A DNA stretch of 64,000 nucleotides from an uncultured Gammaproteobacteria bacterium (GCA_964414145.1 CAYPVH010000001.1:156851-220850); one strand, 5' to 3'; counted from the stretch's first letter, positions 1 to 64,000 are shown. The notes: generated by a model not told the origin, from the sequence alone. Made by a program: numbers and translations.

Positions 1-1894
1 ATACCTGAAAATAGTTTTTATAAACGCCACCGGGAAAAACGTCGTTAACCGATTCGTTAATATAATCTATAACTAAATTGTTTGTTATGGCTCCACTCTT
101 ATTTATGTTTGTACTTAAACGGACCGATCTTTGCACAAAAAAATTGGCTTTATTAACACCTAAGTTGGCGTCGGCTAACATTAAATAATCCACAAAACAA
201 TTATCATTAAAGTTACACTTGGCCTCAACCATCCTTCCTGTCCAAAACAGGTTATCAAAAAAAGATTCTATTTCTACGTTTTTAAAGTATAAGGTAACTA
301 GCTTTTCGTCAAGGATACTTACCATTCTTTGCCCCAACCCCCAGTAATCAAAATTGCCATCTTCCAATCGCAAAATAAGCGACCGGAAAACCGCTTCAAG
401 AAAATTCTTTTTTCCATGCGAACCCGGGAAAAATTCTTTTTCCGCATAGGTTTGGGCCTTAATAAAAAAGTTGTCGGCAGTTACTGTTTCATCATAATCC
501 CCAACATACAACTCTGGCAAAGCTTCGATTATTTTCTGAACCGCACTTAACGTAACACCAAAAACCCCATCAAAATCGTCCCAACCAACCTCAAGGTCTA
601 CAAACTTCAGGGCGTTTTTAGCGTTTTCTGAAAAGTCAGGTGAAAAATTTGAATCTCTCAAAAACCAATGGGGTTGGTTTAGGTGTTCACGAATAGCACT
701 GGGCGGGTCAAGATGTGTTTTTAACTGACCATCAAGCGTATACACATCATAAACCATTAGTTTTTTTAAGCTGTAATCAACAAACTCAACAACAGCCAAC
801 GAACCAATAAACCCACCCCCTGGCCGTAATTCCATATTGTTCATGAACAACACCAGGTATTTGCGGGGTTTTTTTTCACCCAATATATATGGCAAGTGCT
901 CATTTAGCTTTTCAGCCAAGTCCATATATGGTTCAATCTTGGTTGCTTTCTCCAGTAGCTGATTTTTCTTTTTATTTATAAATGGTGTTTCTGTTTTTCT
1001 CCACATTGTTACCGCGCCGTAGTATGTTTCTTTTGTTTTTTTAAATTGAGCTTTTAATTTTGTTAATCTTAATCTTATTTCTTTCAACTCTGCCGTTGTT
1101 TTTGATTGTTTTATCACTAATTTACTTAAGGCTGAATAGTTTTCAACTAAACCGGCACCGCTGCCGAGTAAGTCAACCGTAATCTTTGTTGAATCATGCA
1201 GGTCAAAAATAACATTATTTATTGGCAGCCAAAATAAGGTATTTTTAGGTACAAGCACCAATTTATCGTTTACCAACTGCCACCTTTCTAACTTATCAAC
1301 TTCTTTTCTGATTAAATTAAACTCACCTCCCCGACTATCCCAAACTGCTTTAATTAACCACCACTCATAAGCAAAGCTTAAAAAATATAAGGCATTTAAG
1401 GCTAATATCATAAAGAATACGGTTTTAGAAAAGAACCAAATAACATCTATCATCTTGGGTTCAAAAATTTTTACCTGTTTGTGTTTTATGTTTTTGGCAA
1501 AGCTAAAAGAGTAGGGAACTGGAGTGCGGTAAAGCACAAACTCAACCAATTCGTTTATTGACCTGTGAATCGGACCAATATTAACCACTTTATAGTTCTT
1601 TAAATGCTTGGTGCTCCAACGACTTTGCTCTTCATATTCCTCTTTGTTGAAAAAAAAGATAAAAACATTAAGTTTGTTTTTTATTAATTCCTTCTTATTA
1701 TAAAAAGGAGTATTTATGTAAACCACCAGGTCAAAATCCTTCTTATAACCTTCTGTTTTTGTTGTTTCAAAAACGGTGTAATTTTTTGCCAGATATTTTT
1801 TTACTACTGCCGTATAGCGGGTTTTTTGGCTGTATACCAACAAACAACTCTTCTTTTCTTCAACAACCTCAACCACATATCTTTGTTTTTTCAT
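1..1894 (-). CDS. DUF4012-like membrane-anchored protein (partial; C-terminus lies beyond window start)
   Basis: Absent from the ORF track because it has no stop in the window. I translated the reverse strand by hand from the ATG at 1894 (plus-strand cat 1892-1894) to position 1 and found no stop. It begins MKKQRYVVEVVEEK, has one TM (VIWFFSKTVFFMILALNALYFLSFAY) and the motif NNMELRPGGGFIGS typical of DUF4012 proteins. Confidence 0.7.
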   Translation of the reverse strand, partial: MKKQRYVVEVVEEKKSCLLVYSQKTRYTAVVKKYLAKNYTVFETTKTEGYKKDFDLVVYINTPFYNKKELIKNKLNVFIFFFNKEEYEEQSRWSTKHLKNYKVVNIGPIHRSINELVEFVLYRTPVPYSFSFAKNIKHKQVKIFEPKMIDVIWFFSKTVFFMILALNALYFLSFAYEWWLIKAVWDSRGGEFNLIRKEVDKLERWQLVNDKLVLVPKNTLFWLPINNVIFDLHDSTKITVDLLGSGAGLVENYSALSKLVIKQSKTTAELKEIRLRLTKLKAQFKKTKETYYGAVTMWRKTETPFINKKKNQLLEKATKIEPYMDLAEKLNEHLPYILGEKKPRKYLVLFMNNMELRPGGGFIGSLAVVEFVDYSLKKLMVYDVYTLDGQLKTHLDPPSAIREHLNQPHWFLRDSNFSPDFSENAKNALKFVDLEVGWDDFDGVFGVTLSAVQKIIEALPELYVGDYDETVTADNFFIKAQTYAEKEFFPGSHGKKNFLEAVFRSLILRLEDGNFDYWGLGQRMVSILDEKLVTLYFKNVEIESFFDNLFWTGRMVEAKCNFNDNCFVDYLMLADANLGVNKANFFVQRSVRLSTNINKSGAITNNLVIDYINESVNDVFPGGVYKNYFQV

Positions 1895-1899
1895 AACCA

Positions 1900-3594
1900 C
1901 TACTGTCTTTCCACGTTAAATAAAGGGCCAACAATTTGAATATTGGCAGGCGCCCTAAGATTAAACCAGTCCTTAAACTCCGACCCACTAAACGAGTCAC
2001 TTCCCGCGTCCCCAGAAACAGTAACGCTAGATGTTTTGCCCGAATTAAGATCTGGAGAAACATTGGCGCTGCTTATGCTACCATAGGGCGTTGTTCCTCT
2101 TGCTCTAAGTTCAGACCTTACCTTATCTGCGCTCCATATTTCACCACCATAAGGATGGGGTTTGTCTGTTTGATACAAATGATCCCCAAGCGATGAGTCT
2201 TTTCTGGCAAGCAAGATAACATTAACTATGTCGGCAAGTTCTTCTGGTCGCAACCAGGCCGTATTGAGATATTCAGACCTTGCGCCCCAGTCACAATAAA
2301 ACCAAGGTGATTCTTTGTCATATGCCCTGTCGTTAAGTTCGGCAAAACTACCCGGGTTCCCTGTGTGACCATCAAATTTTGTTATGTTTAATATATAACC
2401 CCCATGAGTAGAGGCATATTGAGTAAATCCCGGACTACCGCCGTCTAGAAGAACCCAACCAGCCGTGTCGCTTACCGCTTGCTCCCAGTTTCCACCCTTT
2501 GGTTCCGGCTTAAACACCTGACATTGTTCAGAAGTGCATATTGGTTTTGACCCGTTTGCGGTAACACGTAGGGCATATGTTCTAGCCGCTACCGCCTGTG
2601 CCTTTAAAACAGCAGAATTATTGTCTGTCCAACTATCGGGTACTTCATATATTCTTTTTACATACTCCTCAATGCTTCCAGCCCACCCAGTGGTTGTTGT
2701 AATTTGTATATTTTGATCATAACTTTTATTTAGCTCCATCCCCGGATAATACTCCTGCAGAATTTGGTCTTCGTTTTGACCAGATTTGGCCCTTCCCCAT
2801 GCACCATATTGATTCAAACCATTCCGATGGGGCGCGCCATAAGTAAACAAAGCAAAGCTGGGTGAAAACCCAGGATTAACCCCCCTATCATCAGAGCATC
2901 CCCGCGCCGAAGTACCAGCCGACCTTGGAATATTTAAACTCGCCAATCTTTGATTAACTAATTGCTGCTGTTTTGCGCTAAGTTGGGCGATTTTTGTTTC
3001 CAATTCCGACTGATAGTTTTTCGCCTTTGCTACCTCTTCCTGAAAAAAGTCTTTTTGCTTATCTAGCTCTGCTCGGGCAGAGGCCAGTCCCAATTTTTCT
3101 TCCTCTAAACTTTGCTTCTTTTTTTCAAGATCGGTAATAAAAAAAGCAATTTTTAATATTACGTCTCTGTCTTTTTGTAGGCCTTGCCGATGATAAAAAA
3201 AACTTCTCGACGCGTCTTGAATATTCTTGGTTAAAAATAGTGCAAGTAAATTATTTAGGTAACTCCTAGATTGAATGTAGTGTTTTTTTGCCCGCTGGTC
3301 AATTACTTTTTTTTGTTCAATTAATTCCTTCTCACCAGTTTTTATTTCAGCCGCTTTCTTTTCAACCTCCAACCCAATCGCTACCAATTTGCCCTCAATA
3401 AAATTTACTTTTTGCTGAATACTGTTTAGGTTCTGCTCTAAAGGTTCCGAAGCTTTTCTAGACTCTTCAAGTAGGTTTTTTACTGCCTCTATTTCTTTGT
3501 TTATATCATCCAACTCATCCGCCCTAACAAAAAACGTGGGTGTAATCAAAACCAACCCTAAAAAAACCACTAACACTAACCAAAGTTTACGCAT
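1900..3594 (-). CDS. SpoIID/LytB-domain cell-wall protein with N-terminal signal/TM and long coiled coil
   Basis: 564 aa. Has an N-terminal hydrophobic segment and a Glu/Lys/Gln-rich coiled coil. The C-terminal half carries the SpoIID signature LKAQAVAARTYAL plus CTSEQCQVF. Its stop lies 5 nt upstream of the DUF4012 start. Confidence 0.8.
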   Translation of the reverse strand: MRKLWLVLVVFLGLVLITPTFFVRADELDDINKEIEAVKNLLEESRKASEPLEQNLNSIQQKVNFIEGKLVAIGLEVEKKAAEIKTGEKELIEQKKVIDQRAKKHYIQSRSYLNNLLALFLTKNIQDASRSFFYHRQGLQKDRDVILKIAFFITDLEKKKQSLEEEKLGLASARAELDKQKDFFQEEVAKAKNYQSELETKIAQLSAKQQQLVNQRLASLNIPRSAGTSARGCSDDRGVNPGFSPSFALFTYGAPHRNGLNQYGAWGRAKSGQNEDQILQEYYPGMELNKSYDQNIQITTTTGWAGSIEEYVKRIYEVPDSWTDNNSAVLKAQAVAARTYALRVTANGSKPICTSEQCQVFKPEPKGGNWEQAVSDTAGWVLLDGGSPGFTQYASTHGGYILNITKFDGHTGNPGSFAELNDRAYDKESPWFYCDWGARSEYLNTAWLRPEELADIVNVILLARKDSSLGDHLYQTDKPHPYGGEIWSADKVRSELRARGTTPYGSISSANVSPDLNSGKTSSVTVSGDAGSDSFSGSEFKDWFNLRAPANIQIVGPLFNVERQ

Positions 3595-3612
3595 AACACC
3601 ATTATAATAGAT

Positions 3613-5804: not shown

Positions 5805-6170
5805 CTAGTTTGGGGATTGTTTCTTTGTTTTATACACCTCAAGCTCCAAATATACCTTACCGCCATCCGAACCCACCTTGTTGTTTCCTACCAAAACCAA
5901 CACCTCATTAAAAAACTCATTAATAACCCGTTCGCTTAAGCCGCTGTTTTTTAATTCTCTGCTTTTTTTGTCAATTAACTCTTTAGTTTTAAGCGTCTTC
6001 CAAATTCGTTCCACTACGTCTTTATTGGCCTTATATAAAGACTCCACGTCTCCTTGTTTCTGTTTTAAATACACCGGGTTCATCTCAATATCGTTAATCA
6101 TTTGCTCAATCGGAGGAATTTTAAATATAATCTGCTCAAGTTCTTTCTTTATTTCTTTAAACTTATTCAT
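5805..6170 (-). CDS. hypothetical soluble protein, first gene of the secDF operon
   Basis: Open frame of 121-124 aa (MNKFKEIKKELEQ...) with no recognisable domain. The ATG at 6170 lies 7 nt downstream of a TAAAAT hexamer. An alternative ATG is at 6179. Confidence 0.5.
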   Translation of the reverse strand: MNKFKEIKKELEQIIFKIPPIEQMINDIEMNPVYLKQKQGDVESLYKANKDVVERIWKTLKTKELIDKKSRELKNSGLSERVINEFFNEVLVLVGNNKVGSDGGKVYLELEVYKTKKQSPN

Positions 6171-6177
6171 TAAACAC

Positions 6178-6205
6178 ATTTTAAAACAGATCGTCCGAAA
6201 GTCAA
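6178..6205 (-). promoter_or_regulatory. sigma70-type promoter for the hypothetical-secD-secF-spoIID-DUF4012 operon
   Basis: On the minus strand: TTGACT (plus 6200-6205), 16-nt spacer, TAAAAT (plus 6178-6183), then 7 nt to the ATG at 6170. Confidence 0.45.
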
Positions 6206-6267: not shown

Positions 6268-6308
6268 TTTCTTACTTCAATAATTGGATATAGTTATTAT
6301 AACAACAA

Positions 6309-7634
6309 ATGGACACAGACCTATTGTGGAAAAAAACACTAGATGAAATTGAAGTTGAAGTGTCATCAAACACCTTTGTTTCTTTTTTTAAAAAAACCCA
6401 ATTAACGGGTGTAGAAAACAATAGTCTTGTCATTAGTTGCCCAAATGGAGGGGTGGGGTTTGTTTTAAACAGCAAATATAAAAAACTTATTATAAATACT
6501 GCTTCAAAATACCTCAATCTTCCCATAAGTAGTGTTCGTTTTCAAAACGGAAAAACCAACAAAATTAAGCGAGACGCTGGTCCTCTTTTTAGCAATGAAA
6601 CAAGGACTAAAGAAGAATTAATAACGCTGTCTGGTTTATCAAACAGCTCTACGTTTGAAAATTTTGCTGTTTCTGTTTCCAACCAAATGGCCCAAGCAAC
6701 CGCCCTGGCAGTTGCTAATAACCCCGGCAACGTATACAACCCCCTCTTTATTTGGGGTGGGGTCGGGGTTGGTAAAACACACTTATTAAACGCGATTGGT
6801 ACAAAAATAATCAATAACACCTCACTCTCTGTTCTTTACTGTTCAACCGAAGACTTTACCAACGCTCTTGTTTATTCAATTCGTAACAAAAAAACCGACC
6901 TTTTCCGAAAAAAATACCGCAAAACAGACGTTTTGTTGCTTGATGATATTCAGTTTATTTCCGAAAGAGAATTTGTCCAAGAAGAGTTGTTTAACACTTT
7001 TAACAAGCTCCGTGATCAAAATAAACAAATTGTTTTTACCTCAGACAAACCACCTAAGTTTATTAATAAAATTGAAAAAAGACTTGTTTCCCGTTTTTTG
7101 AGTGGCTTAGTAGTTGATATACAAACGCCGGACTTTGAATTAAAAACAGCCATACTACTTATTAAAACCAGAGAAATGGGTCTAGAAATAGACATTGAAA
7201 CCGCCAAAATCATCGCTGCCAATATTGAAGAAATCAGAGAAATAGAGGGTTTTTTAATGAAGTTGTCGGCCTTAAAACAAATTGGAACCGAAATCAGTAA
7301 AGAACTTGTAGAAAGGTTACTTGTTCAAAACCAGGGAAATCGGCAGATAAAATACAGCGCCAAAGAAATTATTCGCGCCGTTAGTAGAGAAACGGGGGTT
7401 AGGTTAAAAGACATTAAAGATGACAATAGAAAACAAAACATTGTTCAGTCACGCCACCTAATAATGTATTTATTAAAAACGCTTACAAACCTTCCCTATG
7501 AGGATATTGCACATCTCCTGGGTAAGAAAGACCACACAACTGTTATGCACGGAGTTCAAAAAATCATTAACGAAATACCAAATAACGAAGACTTAAGGAA
7601 AAAGATCGAGTCAATAAAACTAATTTTCGTTTAG
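6309..7634 (+). CDS. dnaA: chromosomal replication initiator DnaA
   Basis: 441 aa. Has the AAA+ Walker A GGVGVGKTHLL, the box LLLDDIQF, and a C-terminal DNA-binding domain (RHLIMYLLK, DHTTVMHG). Confidence 0.97.
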   Translation: MDTDLLWKKTLDEIEVEVSSNTFVSFFKKTQLTGVENNSLVISCPNGGVGFVLNSKYKKLIINTASKYLNLPISSVRFQNGKTNKIKRDAGPLFSNETRTKEELITLSGLSNSSTFENFAVSVSNQMAQATALAVANNPGNVYNPLFIWGGVGVGKTHLLNAIGTKIINNTSLSVLYCSTEDFTNALVYSIRNKKTDLFRKKYRKTDVLLLDDIQFISEREFVQEELFNTFNKLRDQNKQIVFTSDKPPKFINKIEKRLVSRFLSGLVVDIQTPDFELKTAILLIKTREMGLEIDIETAKIIAANIEEIREIEGFLMKLSALKQIGTEISKELVERLLVQNQGNRQIKYSAKEIIRAVSRETGVRLKDIKDDNRKQNIVQSRHLIMYLLKTLTNLPYEDIAHLLGKKDHTTVMHGVQKIINEIPNNEDLRKKIESIKLIFV

Positions 7635-7736: not shown

Positions 7737-7758
7737 CTTGTACTATAATAACTACGTT

Positions 7759-8865
7759 ATGAATATAACTGTAGTACGGGAACGTTTTTTTGAGATTTTG
7801 CAAAAGTCGTCCTATTTTATCTCATCCAAAATTAACGACATAAAAGTGTTAAAAGGCGTTCTAATAGAAGCAAACAAAAACGGTGTTTATGTTAAAACCA
7901 CCAATATTAGCGAATACTTTCAGGGTGAAATTGGTGGAAAAGTCACAGAAGAGGGCAGTGTTTTGGTTGATTTCAAGGTCTTATATGAAGTTATTCGTAA
8001 TGTTAATGAATCAAAAATAGAAATAAACAAAAAAGGAAGTAACTTAGAAGTGATAAGCACTTCGGGAGTAGTTAAGATTCCCCTGTTTACTGAAGAAAAT
8101 TTTCCTACCATGCCAAAGGTTAACGAAGGTATCGAGGTTGATGGTAGGTATTTTGAGTCCGCAAACCTGAAGAAGATAGTCTTTAGTACAGCCACAGACG
8201 ATACAAGGCCAATATTAACTGGTGTGTGTTTTGATTTTTTAAGCAACGAAACAAGACTGGTTGGAACAGATGGTTTTAGAATGTCATTGTTGGTTTTAAA
8301 AAATAACAACAAGCAGGCGTCATTAGAAGAAAGATTGGTTATTCCTTCAAGAAGCCTGTCTTCGCTAGACAGGGTGTTTTCAAACGATTTGCAAAAAGTT
8401 CTGCTTTTAAAAAAGGAAAATAAAATTGTCTTTTCTGGAAAAGGCATAGTCTTAGTGGTAAGGTTGATTGATGGCGAGTACCCTCCCTATGAAAAGGTGA
8501 TTCCCAAAGATGAGGAAACAGAATGTTTATTAAAAACAGAAGACTTAAAGAAAGCACTTAAAACAACCCAGGTCTTTGCACGCGGCGGCTCTAATATGCT
8601 ACTAATAACAGTTTCCAAAAACAGCGTTGAGTTTTTAGCAAAAAGCCAGGGTTTGGGAGAGGCAAATTATGTTGTTAACAACATAGAAAAAAGCGGTAAA
8701 GATAATAAAATAACCCTAAACCACCGCTTTTTAGCGGAGTTTTCAGAAATATCGGAAGGGGGTGTGGTTTTTAAACTTATCAATCCTTTTTCACCGGTTA
8801 TTTTCTCAAATGCCAAAAATAAAAACTATCAACATATTATTATGCCTATCCGAACCCAAAAATAA
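7759..8865 (+). CDS. dnaN: DNA polymerase III beta sliding clamp
   Basis: About 368 aa with the three-domain clamp pattern (TDDTRPILTGV, LVGTDGFRM, GEYPPYEKVIP, IIMPIR). The ORF-track TTG at 7738 lies upstream of the TATAAT at 7744-7749. The ATG at 7759 is preferred. Confidence 0.95.
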   Translation: MNITVVRERFFEILQKSSYFISSKINDIKVLKGVLIEANKNGVYVKTTNISEYFQGEIGGKVTEEGSVLVDFKVLYEVIRNVNESKIEINKKGSNLEVISTSGVVKIPLFTEENFPTMPKVNEGIEVDGRYFESANLKKIVFSTATDDTRPILTGVCFDFLSNETRLVGTDGFRMSLLVLKNNNKQASLEERLVIPSRSLSSLDRVFSNDLQKVLLLKKENKIVFSGKGIVLVVRLIDGEYPPYEKVIPKDEETECLLKTEDLKKALKTTQVFARGGSNMLLITVSKNSVEFLAKSQGLGEANYVVNNIEKSGKDNKITLNHRFLAEFSEISEGGVVFKLINPFSPVIFSNAKNKNYQHIIMPIRTQK

Positions 8866-8908
8866 ATTGTTTTTACTTTTTCTTCTTATTTTTTAATATA
8901 ATAAAAAC

Positions 8909-9361
8909 ATGTTTTTGTATGCAGGCATAGTTGTGTTTATATGGTTAATTATTATTTCTGTTTTGTTGGTGTACCTGTGGCTAAGTTTACGACCAATTTT
9001 TTCAAGTAGAGGAAGAGGGGTAAAACAAACAATCCAAGACAGCATTTTAAAAAACGACACCCTGCTTTCCCAAATTAAAAACTTAACCACAGACCTAATG
9101 TCTCAAAAAGAGAAGTCAAAATCAGGCCTACAAAAAATTGGGCTAGTCAGGTTTAATCCATTTGATAGAATAGGAGGTACGCAAAGTTATTCTTTGGCGG
9201 TTTTAAATTTGAAAGGGTCGGGTGCAGTAATAACGTTTTTGTATACAAGAACCGGGGTTCGTATATATGTAAAAGAAATACAAGACTATAAAAACAAAGA
9301 AAAAGATACAGAACTAACAAAAGAAGAAAAAAAAGCCATACAAGAAGCAAGTTTAATATAA
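8909..9361 (+). CDS. DUF4446-like small membrane protein
   Basis: 150 aa with an N-terminal TM, then LVRFNPFDRIGGTQSYSLAVLN, which resembles the DUF4446 family. Confidence 0.65.
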   Translation: MFLYAGIVVFIWLIIISVLLVYLWLSLRPIFSSRGRGVKQTIQDSILKNDTLLSQIKNLTTDLMSQKEKSKSGLQKIGLVRFNPFDRIGGTQSYSLAVLNLKGSGAVITFLYTRTGVRIYVKEIQDYKNKEKDTELTKEEKKAIQEASLI

Positions 9362-11304: not shown

Positions 11305-11342
11305 TTGCCGTTTGGTCTAAAACTTCTTAAAATATAAGTATA

Positions 11343-11846
11343 ATGCAGAATCAAGCCAAGAACAAGGGTGACTTTTTTGAGTGGAGTTCACCCATTAGGT
11401 ATTTTGAAAAAAAACCAAAACAATATTTCCGTGCTTTAGTGGTATTGGCGGTTGTGCTAACCCTTTTTTTGTATTTTCTTTCAGAACCATTAATGATAGT
11501 TTTAGTTTGGTTAACAACCTTTGTAGCTGCTGTTAAAGCACTAGTGCCACCACCCAGTGTTTCCTACAAACTTAACAAGTTTGGTATTCAGTTTTTAGAA
11601 AAAACAGTGCCTTTCTCGGTTATTTCAAGCTTTGCTTTACAAACTAAAAAACACACCGAAATTCTTTATATTTACCTAAACACCACTACTTTTTCCGAAT
11701 TTACTATTATTTTACCCAATGAAACAACCACAAAGGAAGAAATTATTGAATATCTTAAAGAAAGGGTTCCTTATATTAGCGAACGCCCAGTAAGCACAAC
11801 AGAAAAAATAGGTGTTTTTTTAGGAAGAATTACCGGTCTTGATTAA
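11343..11846 (+). CDS. hypothetical two-TM membrane protein
   Basis: 167 aa with two adjacent TM helices followed by a soluble domain. No motif recognised. Confidence 0.5.
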   Translation: MQNQAKNKGDFFEWSSPIRYFEKKPKQYFRALVVLAVVLTLFLYFLSEPLMIVLVWLTTFVAAVKALVPPPSVSYKLNKFGIQFLEKTVPFSVISSFALQTKKHTEILYIYLNTTTFSEFTIILPNETTTKEEIIEYLKERVPYISERPVSTTEKIGVFLGRITGLD

Positions 11847-14586: not shown

Positions 14587-14593
14587 TATACTA

Positions 14594-14623
14594 ATCTTAC
14601 AAAAGTATTTACAACTTTGTCAA
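14594..14623 (-). promoter_or_regulatory. promoter of the surface-protein gene
   Basis: On the minus strand: TTGACA (plus 14618-14623), 18-nt spacer ending TG, TAAGAT (plus 14594-14599), then 7 nt to the ATG at 14586. Confidence 0.5.
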
Positions 14624-14693
14624 AACAATCCACACAAAAAATGTAGACTATATGCACTTGTAAACCTTTTATGAATAAGATATTCTGTCTAGT

Positions 14694-47183: not shown

Positions 47184-47238
47184 ACAAGCATTATAGCTTA
47201 TTGCATAAATTACCAACAAGAATAGGAATTAGCTTAAT

Positions 47239-47515: not shown

Positions 47516-47607
47516 TTAGAACTCTAGACGGCGGATGACCAAAAGATTTCAGAAATTAAGAGTAAGTAATTTGGATCTGTTGATTGTTTTAGACTATAAT
47601 ACCTTTT

Positions 47608-49981: not shown

Positions 49982-50007
49982 CAATACATAAATTATACAA
50001 GCAGAGT

Positions 50008-50078
50008 ATTGTGGTGTAAAGATGTTATAGTGTTAAGGTGTTATAGTATTATTGTTTTGTAGTGTTAAGGCATAACGG
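50008..50078. repeat. low-complexity GTGTTA(T/A)AG-type repeat block, inverted relative to the block at 50521-50632
   Basis: AGTGTTAAGG at 50029-50038 and 50061-70. ATAGTATTAT at 50043-50052 is the exact complement of ATAATACTAT at 50547-50556. Confidence 0.55.
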
Positions 50079-50632: not shown

Positions 50633-50652
50633 TATAAGCTATAATACTCACA

Positions 50653-52900: not shown

Positions 52901-53560
52901 TTAATATCGTTCCTCTCTAAACTCAATTTTACTGCCTTCAAGTACCAAGTACTGGGCAAGCCCGTGCCGAATAAAACCACTGTTTAAGTATTTGTTTTCG
53001 GGCAAGTATCGCGCTCTATGGGTATGGCCGCACACCAGCACTTCGTTTTCGTTTAAATGTTTAACTACATATTTTTCGGCTCGGTCACTAAACTTTTTAT
53101 AAAGTGAGTGCTGAAAAATAAATTTGCCAAACAGTCTGTAGGCTAAGTATTCAAAAACGCTATGAACTCTGTTGGCAAAAACTAGCAAAGCACGAGTAGG
53201 AAAAAGTTTTTCTAGGCTCTCTACTACCTTGTGACCGTGTTCAATTATGTATATTCTAGGATTGGCATTAATTTTGTAGTTTTCCATTTGTTTTACCGAA
53301 AACAAATTCACTCTCTTGTCTGTCATGCTTTTCCGGTCGTGGTTGCCGTAAATGTAAATTGTGTTTTTTGAAATAAGCAAAGGAAATAGTTTTTGCCAGT
53401 CCGAATTTACAAAGCGATTAAAAGTAGTTGAAAACCCATCCCAAAAATCACCATTTACAATAACTTGGTCGGCATTACTAACAATGCGTTTTAACAGCTC
53501 ATATTTTTTTGGCTCAAATCTGGCGGTTAAATGAGAATCGGAAAAAATTAGCGTTTTCAT
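52901..53560 (-). CDS. metallophosphoesterase
   Basis: 219 aa with FSDSHL, NGDFWD, GNHD, EHGH and GHTH. Confidence 0.8.
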   Translation of the reverse strand: MKTLIFSDSHLTARFEPKKYELLKRIVSNADQVIVNGDFWDGFSTTFNRFVNSDWQKLFPLLISKNTIYIYGNHDRKSMTDKRVNLFSVKQMENYKINANPRIYIIEHGHKVVESLEKLFPTRALLVFANRVHSVFEYLAYRLFGKFIFQHSLYKKFSDRAEKYVVKHLNENEVLVCGHTHRARYLPENKYLNSGFIRHGLAQYLVLEGSKIEFREERY

Positions 53561-53639
53561 AAGTTAAGTAAAAAACATTTTACCTATTTTAGTCAAATGA
53601 ATGTAAGAGAATAAGTAAGGTATGTATTATAATTAACAA

Positions 53640-54827
53640 ATGATTTTAAATAATTCTTCTTTCTTAAACAGAAACATAAAGCTTTTCTACGTATCAAAAT
53701 TTTTACTGGGACTAAGATTCATTGCTCCTGTTTGGGTGCTTTTTTTTAGCCGTTATATTACCTTTGCCCAGATTGGATACCTAGAAGTGATTGGCTTGCT
53801 TTCAACAGCTATTTTAGAACTACCAAGTGGTGTTTTTGCCGATCTTGTTGGCCGAAAATATTCTGTAGCCTTGGGTAATTTAATTGCAGCTGTGGGTTTG
53901 GTTATAATTGGTTTTTCCCAAACTTTTGGGGCTTTTTTACTTGGGTATATTATTAACTCGGTTGGTTGTGCCTTTGTTTCCGGTTCAGATAGCGCCCTAA
54001 TCTATGACACACTTAAACAATTTAATAAAGAAAATATATATTCAAAAATTGCCGGTAAAGGCGAAACCTTATTTCGCTTAGCGGTGGTTGTGGCTATGGT
54101 TGTAGGGCAATTTATGTACAAAATGGCCTTTGGCTTACCTTATATTGCCCTTGGCGTAACAACTTTGTTTTCAGCGCTTCTATATTTCTTTATGTCTGAG
54201 CCAAATATTGATTCAGAAATATTCACCTTTAAAAACTATATTAGGCAGTTTGTACTGGGTGCAAAAGAAGCTTTTAAAAATAGCAAAACCAGACTGGTTT
54301 CTTATTATTTTATTTTCTTTGCTTCTGTAGAAATTATTTTACTTTGGTTCTATTATGCCTCTTATTTAAGCTGGTTAGGGTATGGAGAAAATAATATTGG
54401 TTATATTTATGCCGCAATTGCTTTTACACGAATGCTGGTTTCATATAAATCTCAGGACATAGAAAACAAGATAACTTTGGGTAAACTAACAATGTACTTA
54501 CCCCTTGTTTTGGGGCTGTCTTTGTTAATATCGGGTATTCAGAACATTTATATAGGTAGCGCGATGCTTTTTATTCATTACTCTCTTTTTGCTCTTCGAT
54601 ATACGGTGCTTGAAAAGTTAATTAATTTGCAATTTGTATCTAAGTATCGGGCCAGTGCCATTTCAACACTCAACATGATAGTTAGTTTTACTTATGCCGT
54701 AGTAATTTTTATGGGCGGTTTCTTTATAGATTTGGGTAATGTTGGAATAGTTTTGCCAATTTTAGGTTTGGTTTTAATCATCACCAATCTACCTCTTGGG
54801 TACTTGTTTAGGAAGTCCGAAGAATAA
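53640..54827 (+). CDS. MFS transporter
   Basis: 395 aa with about 12 TM segments and the loop motif FADLVGRK. Confidence 0.8.
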   Translation: MILNNSSFLNRNIKLFYVSKFLLGLRFIAPVWVLFFSRYITFAQIGYLEVIGLLSTAILELPSGVFADLVGRKYSVALGNLIAAVGLVIIGFSQTFGAFLLGYIINSVGCAFVSGSDSALIYDTLKQFNKENIYSKIAGKGETLFRLAVVVAMVVGQFMYKMAFGLPYIALGVTTLFSALLYFFMSEPNIDSEIFTFKNYIRQFVLGAKEAFKNSKTRLVSYYFIFFASVEIILLWFYYASYLSWLGYGENNIGYIYAAIAFTRMLVSYKSQDIENKITLGKLTMYLPLVLGLSLLISGIQNIYIGSAMLFIHYSLFALRYTVLEKLINLQFVSKYRASAISTLNMIVSFTYAVVIFMGGFFIDLGNVGIVLPILGLVLIITNLPLGYLFRKSEE

Positions 54828-55248: not shown

Positions 55249-55329
55249 TTTGGAGATTGTTTTTTGTTATTTGGAATTTATTTCTGGATCCTAATTTTTG
55301 ATTTAGTTTTTAACTATAATTGTACTTAT

Positions 55330-56199
55330 ATGTTACTTGGCACAACTTTTTCTCATTTATACATAAAAGACTATTTTAAATTGCCCGTTATTAAGTCATT
55401 TAAAGAGCTGTTAACTTTAAATTTAAATGTTGTTCGGCTTTGTTGCTATTTTAGTGAGATTAATTTTATAGAAAATGATTATAACTTTAGCAATATAGAA
55501 AAACTGCTTGAAGAGGCAGAAAAAAAGGAGCAGAAAATATTGTTAACGGTGGGAATGAAAGCGCCCAGGTGGCCTGAATTCCATATTCCACAACACTTGC
55601 GAAACGCGTCTGTGGCAAAAATTGAAGAAGCAACTCTGCAATTTACAGATAAGTGTATTAATAAACTACGTAGTTATAACTGTATAAAGTGGTGGCAAGT
55701 AGAAAACGAACCGCTAGATCAAAGCGGTCCTCGTAACAAAAAAATATCTTTGCAATTTTTAAAAAAAGAAGTGATGTTGGTTAAAAGTTTAGAAAAGGCG
55801 AGACCGGTGGTAGTTAGCTTATGGGGTAATAGTTTAAGTCAACGAAAATTGTTTCCGGTTGTAGAAGACTTGGCAGACATTGTAGGGTTAGATCTATATT
55901 TTAAAATTCCCACAAAAAAGATAGGTTTATATAAGGGGCCAACAGACACAGATAAGGCTATAAAAAAAATGATCCAGAATTCTAAAAAACCTGTTTGGCT
56001 TACAGAATTACAGGCAAACCCCTGGAAGCGCTATTCCGGCGGTACTCATTTATCTATGTTTAAAGAAAATTTTATACGGGCAAAAAAACTGAAACCAAAA
56101 GCAATTTTATTATGGAGTAGCGAATATTGGCTGGCTTTGAAAAACAGGGGAGATAGTACAATTTGGAATGAAGTAAAGACTTTAGGGTCATCCGCTTAG
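55330..56199 (+). CDS. clan GH-A-like TIM-barrel glycoside hydrolase (family not assigned)
   Basis: WWQVENEP is a candidate acid/base motif and VWLTELQ a candidate nucleophile motif. The ATG at 55330 lies 9 nt after TATAAT 55315-55320. The ORF-track start at 55168 runs through repeat and hairpin sequence. The last 4 codons come from a hairpin module. Confidence 0.55.
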   Translation: MLLGTTFSHLYIKDYFKLPVIKSFKELLTLNLNVVRLCCYFSEINFIENDYNFSNIEKLLEEAEKKEQKILLTVGMKAPRWPEFHIPQHLRNASVAKIEEATLQFTDKCINKLRSYNCIKWWQVENEPLDQSGPRNKKISLQFLKKEVMLVKSLEKARPVVVSLWGNSLSQRKLFPVVEDLADIVGLDLYFKIPTKKIGLYKGPTDTDKAIKKMIQNSKKPVWLTELQANPWKRYSGGTHLSMFKENFIRAKKLKPKAILLWSSEYWLALKNRGDSTIWNEVKTLGSSA

Positions 56200-58054: not shown

Positions 58055-58411
58055 TTAAAACCCCAGTTGTTCTTTAATAATTAACCAAATTTTTTTAAGG
58101 TTAGATGCATTTTGGTACTCAATATATTTTTTCTTTTTAAAAGAGTCTTTGGTGCCAGGAAGTGGTGGATCTATCCATGTTGAAATAATAACCCACTCAT
58201 TTCTGTCGTTTTTGGTGGCAATAACAGTAACGGTTTCGCTTCCAAATCTTTTTTTGTATTCATAAGTTCCTGCTTTATTTCCTTGTTGTTGAAAGTCGGG
58301 GGAATAAAAAGCTTGCCTGGCTTTTTCTTGGCTAAATTCCCTCTCTTTTAGTCTGGCAAGGGCGTGATTAGTCCAAATTACACCGCCATATGTTGAAGAA
58401 TAGTACATCAT
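58055..58411 (-). CDS. small DUF4258-like protein
   Basis: WTNHALARLKEREFS resembles the DUF4258 core. ATGATG lies at 58411/58408, 4 and 7 nt after TATAAT (plus 58416-58421). The ORF-track TTG at 58444 is rejected. Confidence 0.45.
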   Translation of the reverse strand: MMYYSSTYGGVIWTNHALARLKEREFSQEKARQAFYSPDFQQQGNKAGTYEYKKRFGSETVTVIATKNDRNEWVIISTWIDPPLPGTKDSFKKKKYIEYQNASNLKKIWLIIKEQLGF

Positions 58412-58437
58412 ATGTATTATATTACTTAAAAAAATAC

Positions 58438-58467
58438 TTGACAAATTAGCAGACCAGTGTGTATACT
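58438..58467 (+). promoter_or_regulatory. promoter of hsp20
   Basis: TTGACA 58438-58443, 18-nt spacer, TATACT 58462-58467. The leader has GAGAGGAG at 58477-58484. Confidence 0.6.
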
Positions 58468-58498
58468 GCTAAGCAAGAGAGGAGATGAGAATAAGAAT

Positions 58499-58918
58499 AT
58501 GCCAATTGTTAGATTTGACCCTTTCAGGTCGTTCATGCGCCCTACAATGTGGGATGAGGAATGGCCCGAACTCACTATTTCCAAAGGCCTTAATGTTTAT
58601 GAGGAAGACAATAAGGTTATTGTTGAAGCCGCGGTGCCAGGTATCTCCGAAGACAACATAGATATTATCTATGAAGACGGAGTTTTAACAATTTCCGCCA
58701 GAGAAGAAAAAAAAGAAGAAGAAAAAAAGAAAAACCGCGTTGTTCATCGGGAAGAAAGAGTTACTTCATTTAGTTACACCACCTATTTACCAAGGGCCGT
58801 AGAGGCAGGTAAAATAGACGCAACCGTAGACAATGGCGTGCTCAAGGTAACCGCTCCGGTTACAGAGGCAGCCAAAGCCAAGAAAATTCCTGTAAAAGCA
58901 GGATTAAAAAAGAAGTAA
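58499..58918 (+). CDS. Hsp20/alpha-crystallin small heat-shock protein
   Basis: 139 aa with an alpha-crystallin domain (VIVEAAVPGISEDNIDIIYEDGVLTISA ... ATVDNGVLKVTAP). The ATG at 58499 is preferred over the ORF-track GTG at 58457, which lies inside the promoter. Confidence 0.9.
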   Translation: MPIVRFDPFRSFMRPTMWDEEWPELTISKGLNVYEEDNKVIVEAAVPGISEDNIDIIYEDGVLTISAREEKKEEEKKKNRVVHREERVTSFSYTTYLPRAVEAGKIDATVDNGVLKVTAPVTEAAKAKKIPVKAGLKKK

Positions 58919-58975: not shown

Positions 58976-59028
58976 AATGGTTCCAGTGTTTTTGAGAAGT
59001 ATTATATTTGTTCTGTTATAATTTTATT

Positions 59029-59223
59029 ATGCAATGCCCGTTGTGTCGAGCAAAGATGGAAGAGGGTTATATAGACAGGAGTATTTGGATTAGCGGCAAA
59101 TATAATCCAGTAATAAAAATTGCCTCAAGTATGGCAATGTGGCCACTTAGAAGAAAGACTGAATACGTTATAGCATGGAAATGCTCAAAATGTAATAAAA
59201 TTGAATTAATGGCTTCTGAGTAA
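59029..59223 (+). CDS. small zinc-ribbon protein
   Basis: 64 aa with CPLC ... CSKC. The ATG at 59029 lies 6 nt after TATAAT 59017-59022. Confidence 0.5.
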   Translation: MQCPLCRAKMEEGYIDRSIWISGKYNPVIKIASSMAMWPLRRKTEYVIAWKCSKCNKIELMASE

Positions 59224-59402
59224 ATTTTTTATTTTATTTGGTTCAGGTATATAAGGATTAATTTATTTGTCGTATTTTAATTTAGGTACCAACTCTGTTG
59301 TTTTTGATGTTCTATCTATTACTATGCTTGGTACTGGCACCTATTTTTTTTCTAAAATAGAGGTATAGAATTTATTAATAATAACTTAGATATAATATTT
59401 TT

Positions 59403-59837
59403 ATGAATTGTCAGTTTTTAGACACAGAAATAGATCTTGTTTTAAAGCAAGAATTTACTTCGGTAAAAAAACATTTTGAATCAATTATTAAAGAAAACAA
59501 GCTGAATAATGCCAATTTGGTATGTTTTGTACCCCACGAAGTTTCTTCCTTAATCCAAATTGGCTGGGAAGACGGTTTGCTGGACGACCTGAAAGATTTT
59601 CTAATAGATGTGGCGCCACAAGGCAAGTACACAAAACATGACGAGCCCGGAACTCCTTTTCGGCATAATTTTTATGAACACATTAGAGCAAAACTGGTTG
59701 GCAGTATTTCTATAACTTTAGTTGTAAAAAGCAAAAAACTTTATTTAGGGAAATACCAAGACATATATTTTTATAGTCCGGTATATAAAAATATTCCCAA
59801 CCAAAAAATATTTTGCAGAATTGTAAAATTTGATTAA
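59403..59837 (+). CDS. YjbQ/UPF0047-family protein (secondary thiamine-phosphate synthase-like)
   Basis: 144 aa. The pattern VPHEVSSLIQIGWED ... HNFYEHIRAKLVGSS ... LYLGKYQDIYF parallels the YjbQ signature. Confidence 0.75.
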   Translation: MNCQFLDTEIDLVLKQEFTSVKKHFESIIKENKLNNANLVCFVPHEVSSLIQIGWEDGLLDDLKDFLIDVAPQGKYTKHDEPGTPFRHNFYEHIRAKLVGSISITLVVKSKKLYLGKYQDIYFYSPVYKNIPNQKIFCRIVKFD

Positions 59838-61297: not shown

Positions 61298-62070
61298 TAG
61301 CTTTTAACTATTCTTAAAATTTTAAGCTGATTATTGGAAAGGATTAGCCTATTGTTAGACAGCTCATGAATATTACTCTCGTAAAGAGAAAGTAATAATA
61401 GAAAGGCTTTTTTAATATCTTCTTTATTTGTTTTGCAGTATGTTTGTTTAATTTGTTCAACTAAAGGTATATTGGCATGTTTTTCAAAATCAAATTCTCG
61501 GGTTAAGTTATATGAATGAATATAAATTTGAATCAGCATTTGCCTCATCTTATTAACAAAAAACTGGGCATTGATAAGCTCGTTTCTAAAAAGTGATATA
61601 GGTACATAAACAGACAGCTCCAAGAATTTATTACTTAACAAACTTAAGTCAACAGAATTTATTGTTTTCTTTGTTGCCGCCATAATTTCAGCCTTAGTTA
61701 AAGTACCGCACAGTATTTGCATTGAACTTAAAATTGCGTTTTTTGTGTCTTGTAGAGTGTGAAAACGAATACTTACTCTGTCTAGAGTGTCTAGTATAAT
61801 AACCTGCTCATTTTTATGTTCTTCAAACGAAGATAGTACTTGAAAACCGGCCTCCACCAGCGTTTTTTGTATGTGTTTAACTCTTTCCTGTATTACCTTG
61901 CTACTTACATCTTTTACTATTGCATCTAAATCTAGGTCTGAATATTTATCAAAATTACCTCTGGCTACCGAACCAAAAATAATAAAAGCTTGTAAATTAT
62001 TATCGTTACGGAATAGTTCGGTTAATGCTTTTAAAATTTTTTTGTGATTATTGTTTCCTGATATAAACAT
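61294..62070 (-). CDS. nucleotidyltransferase-domain protein (MNT/KNTase-like N-domain plus helical C-domain)
   Basis: IIFGSVARGNFDKYSDLDLDAIV. Met8 (ATG at 62070) lies 6 nt after TATACT (plus 62077-62082). Confidence 0.7.
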   Translation of the reverse strand: MFISGNNNHKKILKALTELFRNDNNLQAFIIFGSVARGNFDKYSDLDLDAIVKDVSSKVIQERVKHIQKTLVEAGFQVLSSFEEHKNEQVIILDTLDRVSIRFHTLQDTKNAILSSMQILCGTLTKAEIMAATKKTINSVDLSLLSNKFLELSVYVPISLFRNELINAQFFVNKMRQMLIQIYIHSYNLTREFDFEKHANIPLVEQIKQTYCKTNKEDIKKAFLLLLSLYESNIHELSNNRLILSNNQLKILRIVKSY

Positions 62071-62137
62071 AAGAAGAGTATAACAGACCATAAGTTGTTT
62101 AGTAGTTAATCATACTTATACCGGTTATAATATTTCT

Positions 62138-63001
62138 ATGTTGTTGCCAATTTCGTTAGCATTAATTACTTTTATTGGCTGGGGAACAGGCGACTTGTTT
62201 ACTATTGTAGCTACAAGAAAGATTGGGGCAACATTAACCACCTTTTGGGTTTTCTTTTTTAGTTTTTTACTTTCGCTTGTTGCCCTTTTTTTTGCTCCCC
62301 ATAACTTTACCTTAATAACCTTGCCGCTTTTAGCTTTTAATATTTTTTTAGGGATTCTTTTTGTGTCGGGCAACGTACTTATTAGTGAGGCGTTTAGAAT
62401 TTCAAGTGCCCCATTGGTTGGTATTATTATTCAGGCCTTTCCGGCAGTGGTTTTGGTTTTGTCTGCCCTAATTTATCAAGATTCTGTTTCAGCCTTGCAG
62501 TGGGCAGTAATAGCCGTTATTTTTATTGGTATCTTCCTTTGTAGTGTTGACCTAAAAAAATTAGCCAAATCAAAAAATATAATAGACAAAGGCACAGCTT
62601 TAGCCTTGGTGGCAATGGTTTTTTTGTCTATATTTTTTACTTTTTCAAGAGTGTTAATTAATCAATACGGTTGGTTTTTACCCAGCTTTATTGCAACTGC
62701 CTGTTTCCCCCTAATTCTTATTTTTATTAAAAAAAGAAAAGAAAAGTTAGTTTTTCCTAAAACAGGCAAAGTTGTTTTTTCTGTATTTATGGTGGGACTG
62801 CTTATTCGTGCCGGCGACTTTGCCCTAAATTATGGCTTATCTTTGCCAAAAGCCAGTAAATTGGTAGCGCCTATTGCTGGGGCATCTCCGGTTCTATTTG
62901 TAATACTGTCTGCCCTAATTTTCAAAGACAGGCTAACCAAACAACAAATTTTAGGGATTATTGTTACGCTAGTTGGGGTATTAATACTTGTTACTGTTTA
63001 A
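62138..63001 (+). CDS. DMT-superfamily (EamA) transporter
   Basis: 287 aa with 10 TM segments. Confidence 0.8.
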   Translation: MLLPISLALITFIGWGTGDLFTIVATRKIGATLTTFWVFFFSFLLSLVALFFAPHNFTLITLPLLAFNIFLGILFVSGNVLISEAFRISSAPLVGIIIQAFPAVVLVLSALIYQDSVSALQWAVIAVIFIGIFLCSVDLKKLAKSKNIIDKGTALALVAMVFLSIFFTFSRVLINQYGWFLPSFIATACFPLILIFIKKRKEKLVFPKTGKVVFSVFMVGLLIRAGDFALNYGLSLPKASKLVAPIAGASPVLFVILSALIFKDRLTKQQILGIIVTLVGVLILVTV

Positions 63002-63042: not shown

Positions 63043-63612
63043 TCAGTTAATTATCTCTTCTATATCTGCATTAGCGCTCATTGCTTTAAATAATTCTAAT
63101 CTGGTAAGATAAGCAAGACCAAGATCATTCAAAACTCTTTTTCTGTGGCCGTACAGAATACTTAAAGAAGCACTGCCGCCAGAAGTTAAAAAAAGATTAG
63201 GGGATTTAGTTTGCAGATATGCCAATTTTTGGCCTTTTGCTGCGTTTTCAATATCTACAAATTGGGCTGGGCAAATACAGATTATCTCACCAGCTGAGTG
63301 GTCAAAGCCAAAAACATGTTCAGTTAAGCCTATGAGTTGCCAAAAAGCGCTAGGTTTGGCTGGATTATATGCGACAACATAGCCAACTTCGAGCGAAAAG
63401 CGCGTTAGTAATTCTATCCTGCTCAGGGCAGAGCAAAGCTGCATTTCTTCATATCTTCTGTTAGATAAGCTTAGGCAAGAAGCATCGGCGCCTTGCTGGT
63501 TGCATAATTTAATCGATCTTTGTCGATGATGTTCTATAGATGAAATTATCTGCATTACTTGTGTATCAAGCCACGCTTGTACTTCATTTTGATAAGTTAA
63601 AACTTCACTCAT
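63043..63612 (-). CDS. hypothetical soluble protein
   Basis: 189 aa with no motif recognised. TATAAT lies 8 nt upstream of the ATG. Confidence 0.5.
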   Translation of the reverse strand: MSEVLTYQNEVQAWLDTQVMQIISSIEHHRQRSIKLCNQQGADASCLSLSNRRYEEMQLCSALSRIELLTRFSLEVGYVVAYNPAKPSAFWQLIGLTEHVFGFDHSAGEIICICPAQFVDIENAAKGQKLAYLQTKSPNLFLTSGGSASLSILYGHRKRVLNDLGLAYLTRLELFKAMSANADIEEIIN

Positions 63613-63775
63613 AAAGCCTGATTATACTATAGGTTGTTAGAAAAGTGAAGCTGTGTTTAGCTTAGTGCTTCTTGCAACAGTTCGCTCCTCAATTTTAACA
63701 GATGAAATAATAATGTGACAGATTTGTATTAACATTAACAAAAATAAAAGTATACTTATTTAAGGGTAATACTTT

Positions 63776-64000
63776 ATGAACAAAAAAGTTACCGGAGGTA
63801 TTTTGGTTACACTCGGGTATCTTTTGTCCCCACTTTCTTGGTGGAACGATCTGTTTCTCAATATTCCCATCGCTTATGGCGTGGCTTTTTTGTTTAGCTT
63901 AATTTCTAAAAACCTTTTTGCCCCGGCAATGATCATTGCCTATTGGCTAACCAATATTACAGGGTTTATTTTAATGCATAAAGGGGCTAAAAAATTTATA
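63776..64000 (+). CDS. hypothetical membrane protein (partial; runs off window end)
   Basis: Absent from the ORF track. The ATG at 63776 opens 75 codons with no stop (MNKKVTGGILVTLGYLLSPLSWWNDLFLNIPIAYGVAFLF...), including at least two TM helices. Confidence 0.5.
   Translation, partial: MNKKVTGGILVTLGYLLSPLSWWNDLFLNIPIAYGVAFLFSLISKNLFAPAMIIAYWLTNITGFILMHKGAKKFI

Follow-up and report, generated by a model that had tools for sequence, protein, structure and literature searches.

We analysed a 64,000-nt stretch of DNA (hereafter the window) from an uncultured bacterium catalogued as a gammaproteobacterium (GCA_964414145.1, CAYPVH010000001.1:156851-220850), in which many genes are preceded by a TATAAT-like hexamer, similar to the -10 element of sigma-70 promoters, that ends 6-9 nt before the start codon. 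The window is densely coding and low in GC (36% overall; 34-39% across the 64 kb). The dnaA-dnaN pair sits at a switch of GC skew, and genetic code 11 yields long open reading frames (ORFs), with TGA as a standard stop. There is just one tRNA gene, and Rfam searches, at gathering thresholds and by E-value, found no rRNA gene in the window. Among genome contigs the top RecA match (71% identity) also bears a Gammaproteobacteria label, and the neighbours at 61-70% identity include metagenome-assembled genomes (MAGs) of the Patescibacteria group, Woesebacteria, Daviesbacteria and Shapirobacteria; matches under about 62% identity are mostly from Bacteroidota and other phyla, and these were taken as controls. 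An exact copy of the RecA sequence turned up only on two contigs of less than 2 kb. The best MetG match, from metagenome contigs, has 64% identity. Families characteristic for the CPR (Candidate Phyla Radiation), namely T4SS_pilin, DUF5657, DUF5667 and DUF4012, are also encoded. Judged from its homologues and gene content, the window is that of a low-GC Patescibacteria/CPR bacterium related to Microgenomates ("Microgenomates-like").

The original prediction listed 29 genes with such a hexamer as heads of transcription units, and proposed that the first nucleotide of their mRNAs coincides with the start codon or lies no more than 1-3 nt from it. All 29 pairs of hexamer and start codon lie where it had placed them, separated by a gap (end of hexamer to start codon) of 6-9 nt. 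Seventeen of the 29 hexamers are perfect TATAAT and four are weak (TAACTT, TATTCT, TAGCAT and TAAGAT). Judged by spacing, the genes starting at 3594 and 41149 are not heads of transcription units, since they follow an upstream gene by 18 and 29 nt, respectively. At 45224-45229 (ATTATT) the start was well placed but the register was not, the better box being TG-n-TATTAT at 45223-45228. The listed genes, with the span from promoter to start codon, are:

7744..7761, plus strand: dnaN; TATAAT, gap 9, ATG 7759 (start supported by the TIGR00663 alignment)
8897..8911, plus strand: DUF4446 gene; TATAAT, gap 6, ATG 8909
14681..14696, plus strand: recA; TATTCT, gap 7, ATG 14694; -35 TTGTAA at 17 nt
24685..24723, plus strand: pilin-like gene; TTGACA-17-TAGCAT, gap 7, ATG 24721
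26830..26844, plus strand: dprA; TACAAT, gap 6, GTG 26842
32545..32560, plus strand: 190-aa gene; TAATAT, gap 7, ATG 32558; -35 TTGAAT
38789..38805, plus strand: HAD hydrolase; TATAAT, gap 8, ATG 38803
41135..41151, plus strand: EamA transporter; TAGAAT, gap 8, ATG 41149 (fits domain coordinates)
45223..45240, plus strand: transglutaminase-like gene; TGcTATTAT, gap 9, ATG 45238
47595..47610, plus strand: NUDIX gene; TATAAT, gap 7, ATG 47608
50640..50655, plus strand: metG; TATAAT, gap 7, ATG 50653
53628..53642, plus strand: MFS transporter; TATAAT, gap 6, ATG 53640
55315..55332, plus strand: glycoside hydrolase-like (GH-like) gene; TATAAT, gap 9, ATG 55330 (longest ORF from TTG 55168)
59017..59031, plus strand: zinc-ribbon DUF6487 gene; TGtTATAAT, gap 6, ATG 59029
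59391..59405, plus strand: UPF0047 gene; TATAAT, gap 6, ATG 59403
62126..62140, plus strand: EamA transporter; TATAAT, gap 6, ATG 62138
3592..3606, minus strand: SpoIID-domain gene; TATAAT, gap 6, ATG 3594; promoter within the 18-nt spacer after secF
6168..6205, minus strand: 121-aa gene; TTGACT-16-TAAAAT, gap 7, ATG 6170
14584..14623, minus strand: 703-aa gene; TTGACA-18-TAAGAT, gap 7, ATG 14586
20694..20710, minus strand: 183-aa gene; TGaTATAAT, gap 8, ATG 20696
24665..24679, minus strand: uppS; TGaTAAAAT, gap 6, ATG 24667
26770..26785, minus strand: 2-hydroxyacid dehydrogenase; TATACT, gap 7, ATG 26772 (start supported by profile coordinates)
32474..32489, minus strand: alaS; TGaTACAAT, gap 7, ATG 32476 (fits domain coordinates)
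37895..37909, minus strand: HEAT-repeat gene; TGtTATAAT, gap 6, putative start GTG 37897
38268..38305, minus strand: 80-aa gene; TTGACA-17-TAACTT, gap 6, ATG 38270
47181..47195, minus strand: rpiB; TATAAT, gap 6, ATG 47183 (start supported by profile coordinates)
58406..58444, minus strand: DUF4258-like gene; TTGTCA-17-TATAAT, gap 7, ATG 58408
62068..62082, minus strand: nucleotidyltransferase; TGtTATACT, gap 6, ATG 62070
63610..63626, minus strand: 189-aa gene; TATAAT, gap 8, ATG 63612

Further cases, absent from that list, are:

25389..25405, plus strand: pilin-like gene; TATAAT, gap 8, ATG 25403; 1 nt after the upstream gene, with the promoter inside the latter
39664..39678, plus strand: TAGAAT, gap 6, ATG 39676
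49979..50020, minus strand: EamA transporter; TTTACA-17-TATAAT, with TTG 49984 (gap 7) or ATG 49981 (gap 10)
11305..11345, plus strand: TTGCCG-17-TAAAAT, gap 9, ATG 11343
18123..18138, minus strand: TATATT, gap 7, ATG 18125 (a weaker case); from another promoter, TTGACA-17-TATATT at 18192-18164, the leader would be about 32 nt long
6295..6311, plus strand: dnaA; TATTAT, gap 8, ATG 6309
53558..53596, minus strand: metallophosphoesterase; TTGACT-18-TTTACT, gap 6, ATG 53560 (Pfam position 1 is residue 1)

Among the 31 genes with this geometry, gaps of 6, 7, 8 and 9 nt occur 13, 8, 6 and 4 times, and the start codons are ATG (27), GTG (2) and TTG (2). Because ten of the 29 starts had been picked by the rule itself, we used tests that are independent of the choice of start. 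The pattern TATAAT-N{6,9}-ATG occurs 16 times in the window, against 4.14±2.22 times in 100 dinucleotide shuffles, none of which reached 16. The neighbouring ranges were at chance (TATAAT-N{10,13}-ATG, 5 vs. 4.3 in shuffles; TATAAT-N{2,5}-ATG, 3 vs. 3.9). Each of these 16 ATG codons begins an ORF, 64-571 codons long; of all 1366 ATGs in the window, just 19% open at least 70 codons. When all 20 hexamers composed of three A's and three T's were compared, an ATG of a long ORF followed TATAAT at gap 6-9 in 15 of 81 cases, the next-best hexamer scoring 5/125 and the reverse complement, ATTATA, 3/81.

A gene-centred test gave the same picture. For 75 genes, with naive longest-ORF starts, we required at least five of six matches, including A at position 2 and T at position 6, and compared the counts with 1000 local dinucleotide shuffles of the 45 nt that precede the respective gene. 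A hexamer at gap 6-9 was found in 24 of the 75 genes (4.28±1.96 in the shuffles, with a maximum of 10), and a perfect TATAAT in 13 (0.53±0.74 in the shuffles). The positional profile showed 9, 6, 7 and 4 genes at gaps 6, 7, 8 and 9, and about one per gap elsewhere. Shuffled AT-rich sequence, which had been named beforehand as a null model that might undo the idea, does not reproduce the hexamer-to-ATG distance peak. The observation is real and far beyond chance.

The requirement that a -10 box end 6-9 nt before the start altered 10 of the 75 starts, so that by this rule about 13% of the longest-ORF starts in the window are wrong; five or six of the changes were independently confirmed. The claim that the rule resolves ambiguous starts held for dnaN, rpiB, the 2-hydroxyacid dehydrogenase, the zinc-ribbon gene and the GH-like gene, as judged by profile hidden Markov model coordinates or the N-termini of orthologues, and only approximately for the nucleotidyltransferase. 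In the longest dnaN ORF, position 1 of TIGR00663 falls on residue 8, encoded by ATG 7759; in the longest rpiB ORF, the profiles begin, with position 1, at residue 13, encoded by ATG 47183. Profiles for the 2-hydroxyacid dehydrogenase begin at residues 12-14 of the longest ORF (start 26772), and the DUF6487 profile begins at residue 10, the start at 59029 being residue 8. For the nucleotidyltransferase, profile position 4 falls at residue 16 and the start at 62070 is residue 8. Orthologues of the GH-like gene at two related loci (L083 and L087, see below) start at the residue matching ATG 55330, and the one in L083 has TATAAT-6-ATG. The unchanged starts of alaS, hup, the EamA gene at 41149 and the metallophosphoesterase gene at 53560 also agree with domain coordinates.

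Several properties bear on whether the hexamers are promoters. They precede 26 of 47 transcription-unit heads (55%) and 5 of 28 internal genes (18%; p=0.0017), and about six further heads have weaker -10 boxes together with good -35 boxes. An extended -10 TG accompanies 24% of the hexamers at gap 6-9, as opposed to 5% of the remaining -10-like hexamers, 917 in number (p=1.7e-4). Of the four weak boxes, three (TAAGAT, TAGCAT and TAACTT) have a perfect TTGACA at 17-18 nt, and the fourth, the TATTCT of recA, is paired with TTGTAA at 17 nt. Taken together, a -35 box (at least 4/6) or a TG is present with 15 of 33 hexamers and with 17% of other -10-like hexamers (p=2.4e-4). The promoter of hup, a leadered gene, is built on the same consensus (TTGACA-16-TATAAT, a 12/12 match). 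By these sequence features, the hexamers behave as DNA promoters and not as an RNA-level ribosome-binding motif, because of the bias toward heads, the extended -10 TG and the compensation of weak -10 boxes by -35 boxes. Transcription from sigma-70 promoters starts about 7 nt after the -10 element, so that with a gap of 6 the +1 position would fall on the A of the ATG. Predicted folding of the first 40 nt did not discriminate, structure being weaker in leaderless-type and other genes alike.

The near absence of Shine-Dalgarno (SD) sequences was borne out. GGAG, GAGG or AGGA occurs at -18 to -4 in 3 of 71 genes, which equals the background at a control position, and none of the listed genes has one of these words between hexamer and start. 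GGAG(G) had been assigned to hup, rpsA and hsp20 only; these three do carry it, including hsp20, which is leadered and starts at ATG 58499, but so does an internal cupin gene:

22366..22427, plus strand: hup; TTGACA-16-TATAAT (perfect), about 25 nt of leader; SD GGAGG 22405-22409, 15 nt to ATG 22425
22772..22824, plus strand: rpsA; TGgTATACT, leader of about 38 nt; SD GGAG 22807-22810, 11 nt to ATG 22822
58438..58501, plus strand: hsp20; TTGACA-18-TATACT; SD GGAG 58481-58484, 14 nt to ATG 58499
41575..41591, plus strand: cupin gene, internal; SD GGAG 41575-41578, 10 nt to ATG 41589

For the first three genes the promoters are strong and the leaders are predicted to be 25-38 nt long; the SD of hup reads AAGGAGG (GGAGG at 22405-22409). 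The unusually long distance from SD to start was confirmed for the window (10-15 nt, n=4) but does not extend to the lineage, since the hup and cupin orthologues of relatives have AGGAGGTGA at 7-8 nt; the spacing in other CPR loci is 3-9 nt. The long spacing is a peculiarity of this organism, seen in four genes. That a perfect AGGAGGTGA precedes these orthologues indicates that the anti-SD of the 16S rRNA is probably canonical and intact; a search for conserved 16S motifs found no 16S rRNA gene in the 90 loci that we fetched. When the 132 genes that lack the leaderless geometry, taken from the window and from its closest relatives, were pooled, the only G-rich words enriched near starts were AGGAG and GAGGT, in no more than 10% of genes, and AGGAG, GAGGT or GGAG was present in only about 7-10 of the 132. 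A k-mer search upstream of these genes found no alternative ribosome-binding motif, only residual TA-rich words.

In all four SD leaders, GGAG is also followed, after 0-4 nt, by a further start codon, which either is not in frame with the real start or opens a frame that stops before it. In hup this is GTG-AAA-TAA (22405-22424), in rpsA ATG 22815, which opens a 10-codon upstream ORF (uORF) overlapping the rpsA ATG (22807-22847), in hsp20 ATG 58485 (58481-58498) and in the cupin gene ATG 41579, with a 9-codon uORF (41575-41605). These extra starts, together with the 10-15-nt spacing, might indicate a re-initiation or regulatory arrangement. The rpsA leader carries a 5' hairpin (TCGTTT...AAACGA), and the encoded ribosomal protein S1 (22822-23919) is short, with 365 aa and 3-4 S1 domains.

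The geometry recurs in relatives. In loci found through MetG at 55-64% identity (L083-L088), a -10 box lies at gap 6-9 in 25 of 58 genes, 13 of them at gap 6, the peak; L083 alone has it in 15 of 29 genes. Upstream of metG the box is kept at 6-7 nt (TAGAAT-7 in L083, TATAAT-6 in L084/85, TAAAAT-6 in L088) within differing surrounding sequence. Among orthologues with 44-70% protein identity, the geometry is present in 12 of 17 orthologues of leaderless-type genes, a count from which hup was left out as mis-flagged by a loose rule, and in 3 of 35 orthologues of other genes (p=9e-6). Examples are alaS (TGaTAAAAT-6-ATG in L086), EamA (the orthologues of 41149 in L083 and L084, with a -10 at gap 6), NUDIX (TAAAAT-6-start in L083 and L084), the GH-like and DUF4258-like genes, rpiB and metG. 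The CPR relatives defined through RecA form a gradient: L003-L005 and L024 resemble the window, and L007, L008 and L065 have more SD (24-36% of genes). The recA gene itself is of the leaderless type in L007 (TGtATAAT-8-ATG) and SD-led, at 4-6 nt, in L008, L035 and L065. In 70 non-CPR control loci, mostly from Bacteroidota, no peak was found (60 of 1159 genes vs. 46 expected; 5% vs. 4%).

We consider it likely, on this sequence evidence, that leaderless mRNA is the default mode of gene expression here and that transcripts in the window begin at or near the start codon. The proposal that mRNAs start with the start codon, or 1-3 nt away from it, is supported in that every prediction testable at the sequence level came out as expected. 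The 5' ends of the transcripts, the ribosome pathway and the coupling mechanism are what we infer from the observed geometry, its statistics, the promoter-like properties, their conservation and the corrected starts. A sigma-70-type RNA polymerase would read the TATAAT-like -10 box, aided by an extended -10 TG or a TTGACA -35 box, and, as the box ends 6-9 nt before the start, would initiate at the A of the ATG or 1-3 nt earlier. The mRNA would have no space for an SD, and its 5'-terminal AUG would be bound directly by the ribosome and initiator tRNA. Leaderless initiation in the bacteria studied, as in work on E. coli and Thermus cited in PMC4535381, follows a 70S/IF2-dependent pathway. Some 70% of the heads of transcription units fit this geometry, as do about 40-50% of the genes overall, including the core housekeeping genes dnaN, recA, alaS, metG, uppS, dprA and rpiB, and it would explain the very short divergent intergenic regions (47-107 nt between starts). 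Internal genes lack an SD and mostly start at -17 to +18 nt relative to the stop codon of the preceding gene, which suggests termination-reinitiation coupling across short or overlapping junctions or embedded leaderless promoters of their own (25403, 39676 and 3594). The highly expressed hup, rpsA and hsp20 would have kept a canonical GGAG(G) in leaders made from strong promoters.

A number of observations weigh against this reading. Some heads do not fit: in RNase Y (20884) just 4 nt separate a TGaTATAAT from the ATG, and there is a TTGACA-17-TAAAAT promoter 135 nt upstream (20721-20749), and the genes at 34923, 35086, 45190 (gap 15) and 17243 have apparent SD-less leaders of 9-32 nt. Most strong -10 boxes have no recognisable -35 box, and a -35 box alone (at least 4/6) was not significantly enriched (21% vs. 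13% of other hexamers). A generic sigma-70 scan of this AT-rich window found no more sites in total than in shuffles, so that only position-specific tests, and the top-scoring sites, are informative. Gaps of 8-9 nt mean leaders of 1-3 nt or long discriminators. The anti-SD is only inferred, the 16S rRNA gene being missing from the window and the fetched loci, and the sample consists of the 64-kb window and about 0.25 Mb from relatives, rather than a genome. Between RNase Y and its upstream promoter, in the region 20697-20886, there is also a 23-codon ORF (MVLNFSLSVLLPNHCCGWITVTR).

One could suppose that in a genome of 36% GC, TATAAT-like hexamers fall near starts by accident and that starts were picked to fit, all the more as the generic scan matches shuffles and 10 of the 29 starts had been reassigned in the original prediction. 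Yet the 16 occurrences exceed the four or so of the shuffles while neighbouring gap ranges stay at chance; naive starts give 13 perfect boxes against 0.5 in local shuffles; neither hexamers of the same composition nor the reverse complement are enriched; and reassigned starts were confirmed independently. Shuffles and composition-matched controls rule chance and composition out, and we give them practically no credence. The hexamer might instead act in RNA, as an AU-rich, non-SD element bound by the ribosome or S1 within the leader of transcripts that start upstream, in the style of the Bacteroidota (GeneMarkS-2 "group B"). The near absence of SD, the presence of rpsA and the motif before five internal genes would agree with this. 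But in group B first genes and internal genes both carry the motif upstream (PMC6028130), whereas here heads and internal genes differ (55% vs. 18%); the extended -10 TG and the -35/-10 compensation are features of DNA; the sequence is the exact sigma-70 -10 consensus in one orientation only; its commonest spacing, 6 nt, fits the rule for transcription starts; and the Bacteroidota control loci show no such peak. We regard an RNA element as very unlikely.

It is also conceivable that the promoters are real but secondary, expression coming mainly from longer leadered or polycistronic transcripts with leaderless species minor or condition-specific. Stronger upstream promoters do exist for the gene at 18125 (18192-18164), dnaA (6218-6246) and RNase Y (20721-20749), read-through is plausible in such densely packed genes, and terminator-like hairpins are no commoner in the window than in shuffles. 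However, the divergent pairs 24667/24721, 26772/26842, 32476/32558, 45190/45238, 62070/62138 and 14586/14694, 47-107 nt apart, leave no room for such promoters; a leadered, SD-less mRNA would still need an explanation for its translation initiation; and an argument for selection on the geometry is that orthologues with 44-70% identity keep the exact 6-nt gap. We think this alternative unlikely, and favour leaderless expression as the default. It is quite possible, though short of probable, that the clade represented by L083-L088 and the organism of the window share a leaderless default (roughly one gene in two and 70% of transcription units), have almost abandoned SD elsewhere, and retain a canonical anti-SD for a few very highly expressed genes. 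If so, a low-GC, ribosome-reduced, deep-branching bacterial lineage would start translation as haloarchaea do, with a leaderless share at or above the highest reported for any bacterium, and SD-oriented gene callers would systematically misplace starts in CPR genomes.

Other features of the window lie near the genes discussed. Three small paralogous genes (17430-17732, 24721-25017 and 25403-25756) encode PF18895 T4SS-pilin-like proteins; two of the three have leaderless-type promoters, one of them embedded in the preceding gene. Upstream of dnaA, an alternative promoter (TTGACA-17-TATCCT, 6218-6246) is followed by the DnaA-box-like sequences TGTGGAAAA and TTATCCATA and then by the ATG-proximal TATTAT; the sequence of this region (6218-6309) suggests autoregulation or a part of oriC. 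Arrays of an 8-nt repeat (CATTACAC/CATAACAC) at 50522-50626 (about 11-13 copies) and 50014-50070 (about 6 copies) lie directly upstream of the metG promoter (-10 at 50640) and, inverted, of the minus-strand EamA gene (49984/49981), where the array overlaps the -35 box. They could be regulator-binding arrays or simple-sequence repeats. Between them, at 50112-50483 and far from any rRNA gene, is a lone gene of the "23S rRNA intervening-sequence protein" family (PF05635). The GH-like gene (55330-56199) is flanked by a direct repeat of about 85 nt (about 85% identical; 54853-54937 and 56365-56449) and lies between unusually long non-coding gaps (54828-55329 and 56200-56600) with strong hairpins (such as CCCTCCGATTCGGAGGG, about 55232-55248); no Rfam match was found around these repeats and gaps. 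The region may be an inserted cassette or contain duplicated intergenic RNA elements. The divergent gap between rpiB and the NUDIX gene (47196-47594), about 400 nt of non-coding sequence, holds a tandem 7-nt repeat (AAATCCG x4.6, 47274-47305) and a TATAAT-7-TTG from which an ORF of just 51 codons runs (47346).

The CPR is a very large, mostly uncultured group, whose gene expression the finding informs. To our knowledge, transcription and translation initiation in the CPR are essentially unstudied, and full-text literature searches returned no study tying leaderless mRNAs or SD usage to CPR, Patescibacteria, Saccharibacteria or Microgenomates. Leaderless-dominant expression would extend to a low-GC bacterium with the standard code, which bears on 5'-AUG recognition as an ancestral or fallback mechanism. 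For annotation, the start rule is an improvement that affects N-termini and signal peptides in CPR MAGs. These bacteria have reduced ribosomes, with no uL30, often no bL9 and a short S1, and a lower frequency of detection of the anti-SD motif is reported for just one subgroup of Parcubacteria (PMC9297842).

The GeneMarkS-2 "group C" is defined by a Pribnow box 6-8 nt upstream of gene starts, an accepted computational mark of leaderless transcription in bacteria that for M. tuberculosis and D. deserti has been validated against differential RNA sequencing (dRNA-seq) data (PMC6028130, PMC3160421). Group C is common in Actinobacteria and Deinococcus-Thermus, with 25-50% of operons predicted to be leaderless, and 167 of 262 mapped genes are leaderless in D. 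deserti (PMC6028130); the maximum in the 2011 survey of Zheng et al. was 46% of genes, in D. radiodurans (PMC3160421). The window resembles M. tuberculosis, M. smegmatis, C. glutamicum, S. coelicolor and D. deserti in having a Pribnow -10 box 6-8 nt from the starts of first genes, no SD there and mostly AUG starts, the proportion of operons concerned being similar or higher. It differs from Actinobacteria and Deinococcus-Thermus in that, at 36% GC, 17 of the 29 boxes are full TATAAT, whereas theirs are high-GC genomes with a degenerate TANNNT; a high GC content is reported for nearly every group-C genome with code 11 (bioRxiv 10.1101/2022.07.25.500264). In group C, moreover, the remaining genes use SD, whereas those of the window lack it (3/71, the background level). 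The low-GC Mycoplasma of group C, which use code 4, are predicted to make 30-60% of their transcripts leaderless (bioRxiv 10.1101/2022.07.25.500264) and, as here, combine small, AT-rich, reduced genomes with a high leaderless share; they belong to another phylum, have a different genetic code and still yield an SD-type ribosome-binding-site model for their other genes.

The Bacteroidota of group B share with the window the near absence of SD and A-rich sequence upstream of starts, but show no -10 peak at 6-9 nt (5% vs. 4%) and carry their motif before internal genes too; in the window, the motif is commoner before heads than before internal genes. The transcripts of Haloferax volcanii are mostly leaderless and most of the leadered ones lack SD (PMC3986360), a combination like the one found here. 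H. volcanii differs in being an archaeon, with TATA/BRE elements about 26-30 nt upstream and archaeal initiation factors. The mechanism proposed for the window is an ordinary one, of known leaderless architecture; what is useful, and apparently unreported, is the lineage, the high share of genes, the near absence of SD and the start-codon rule.

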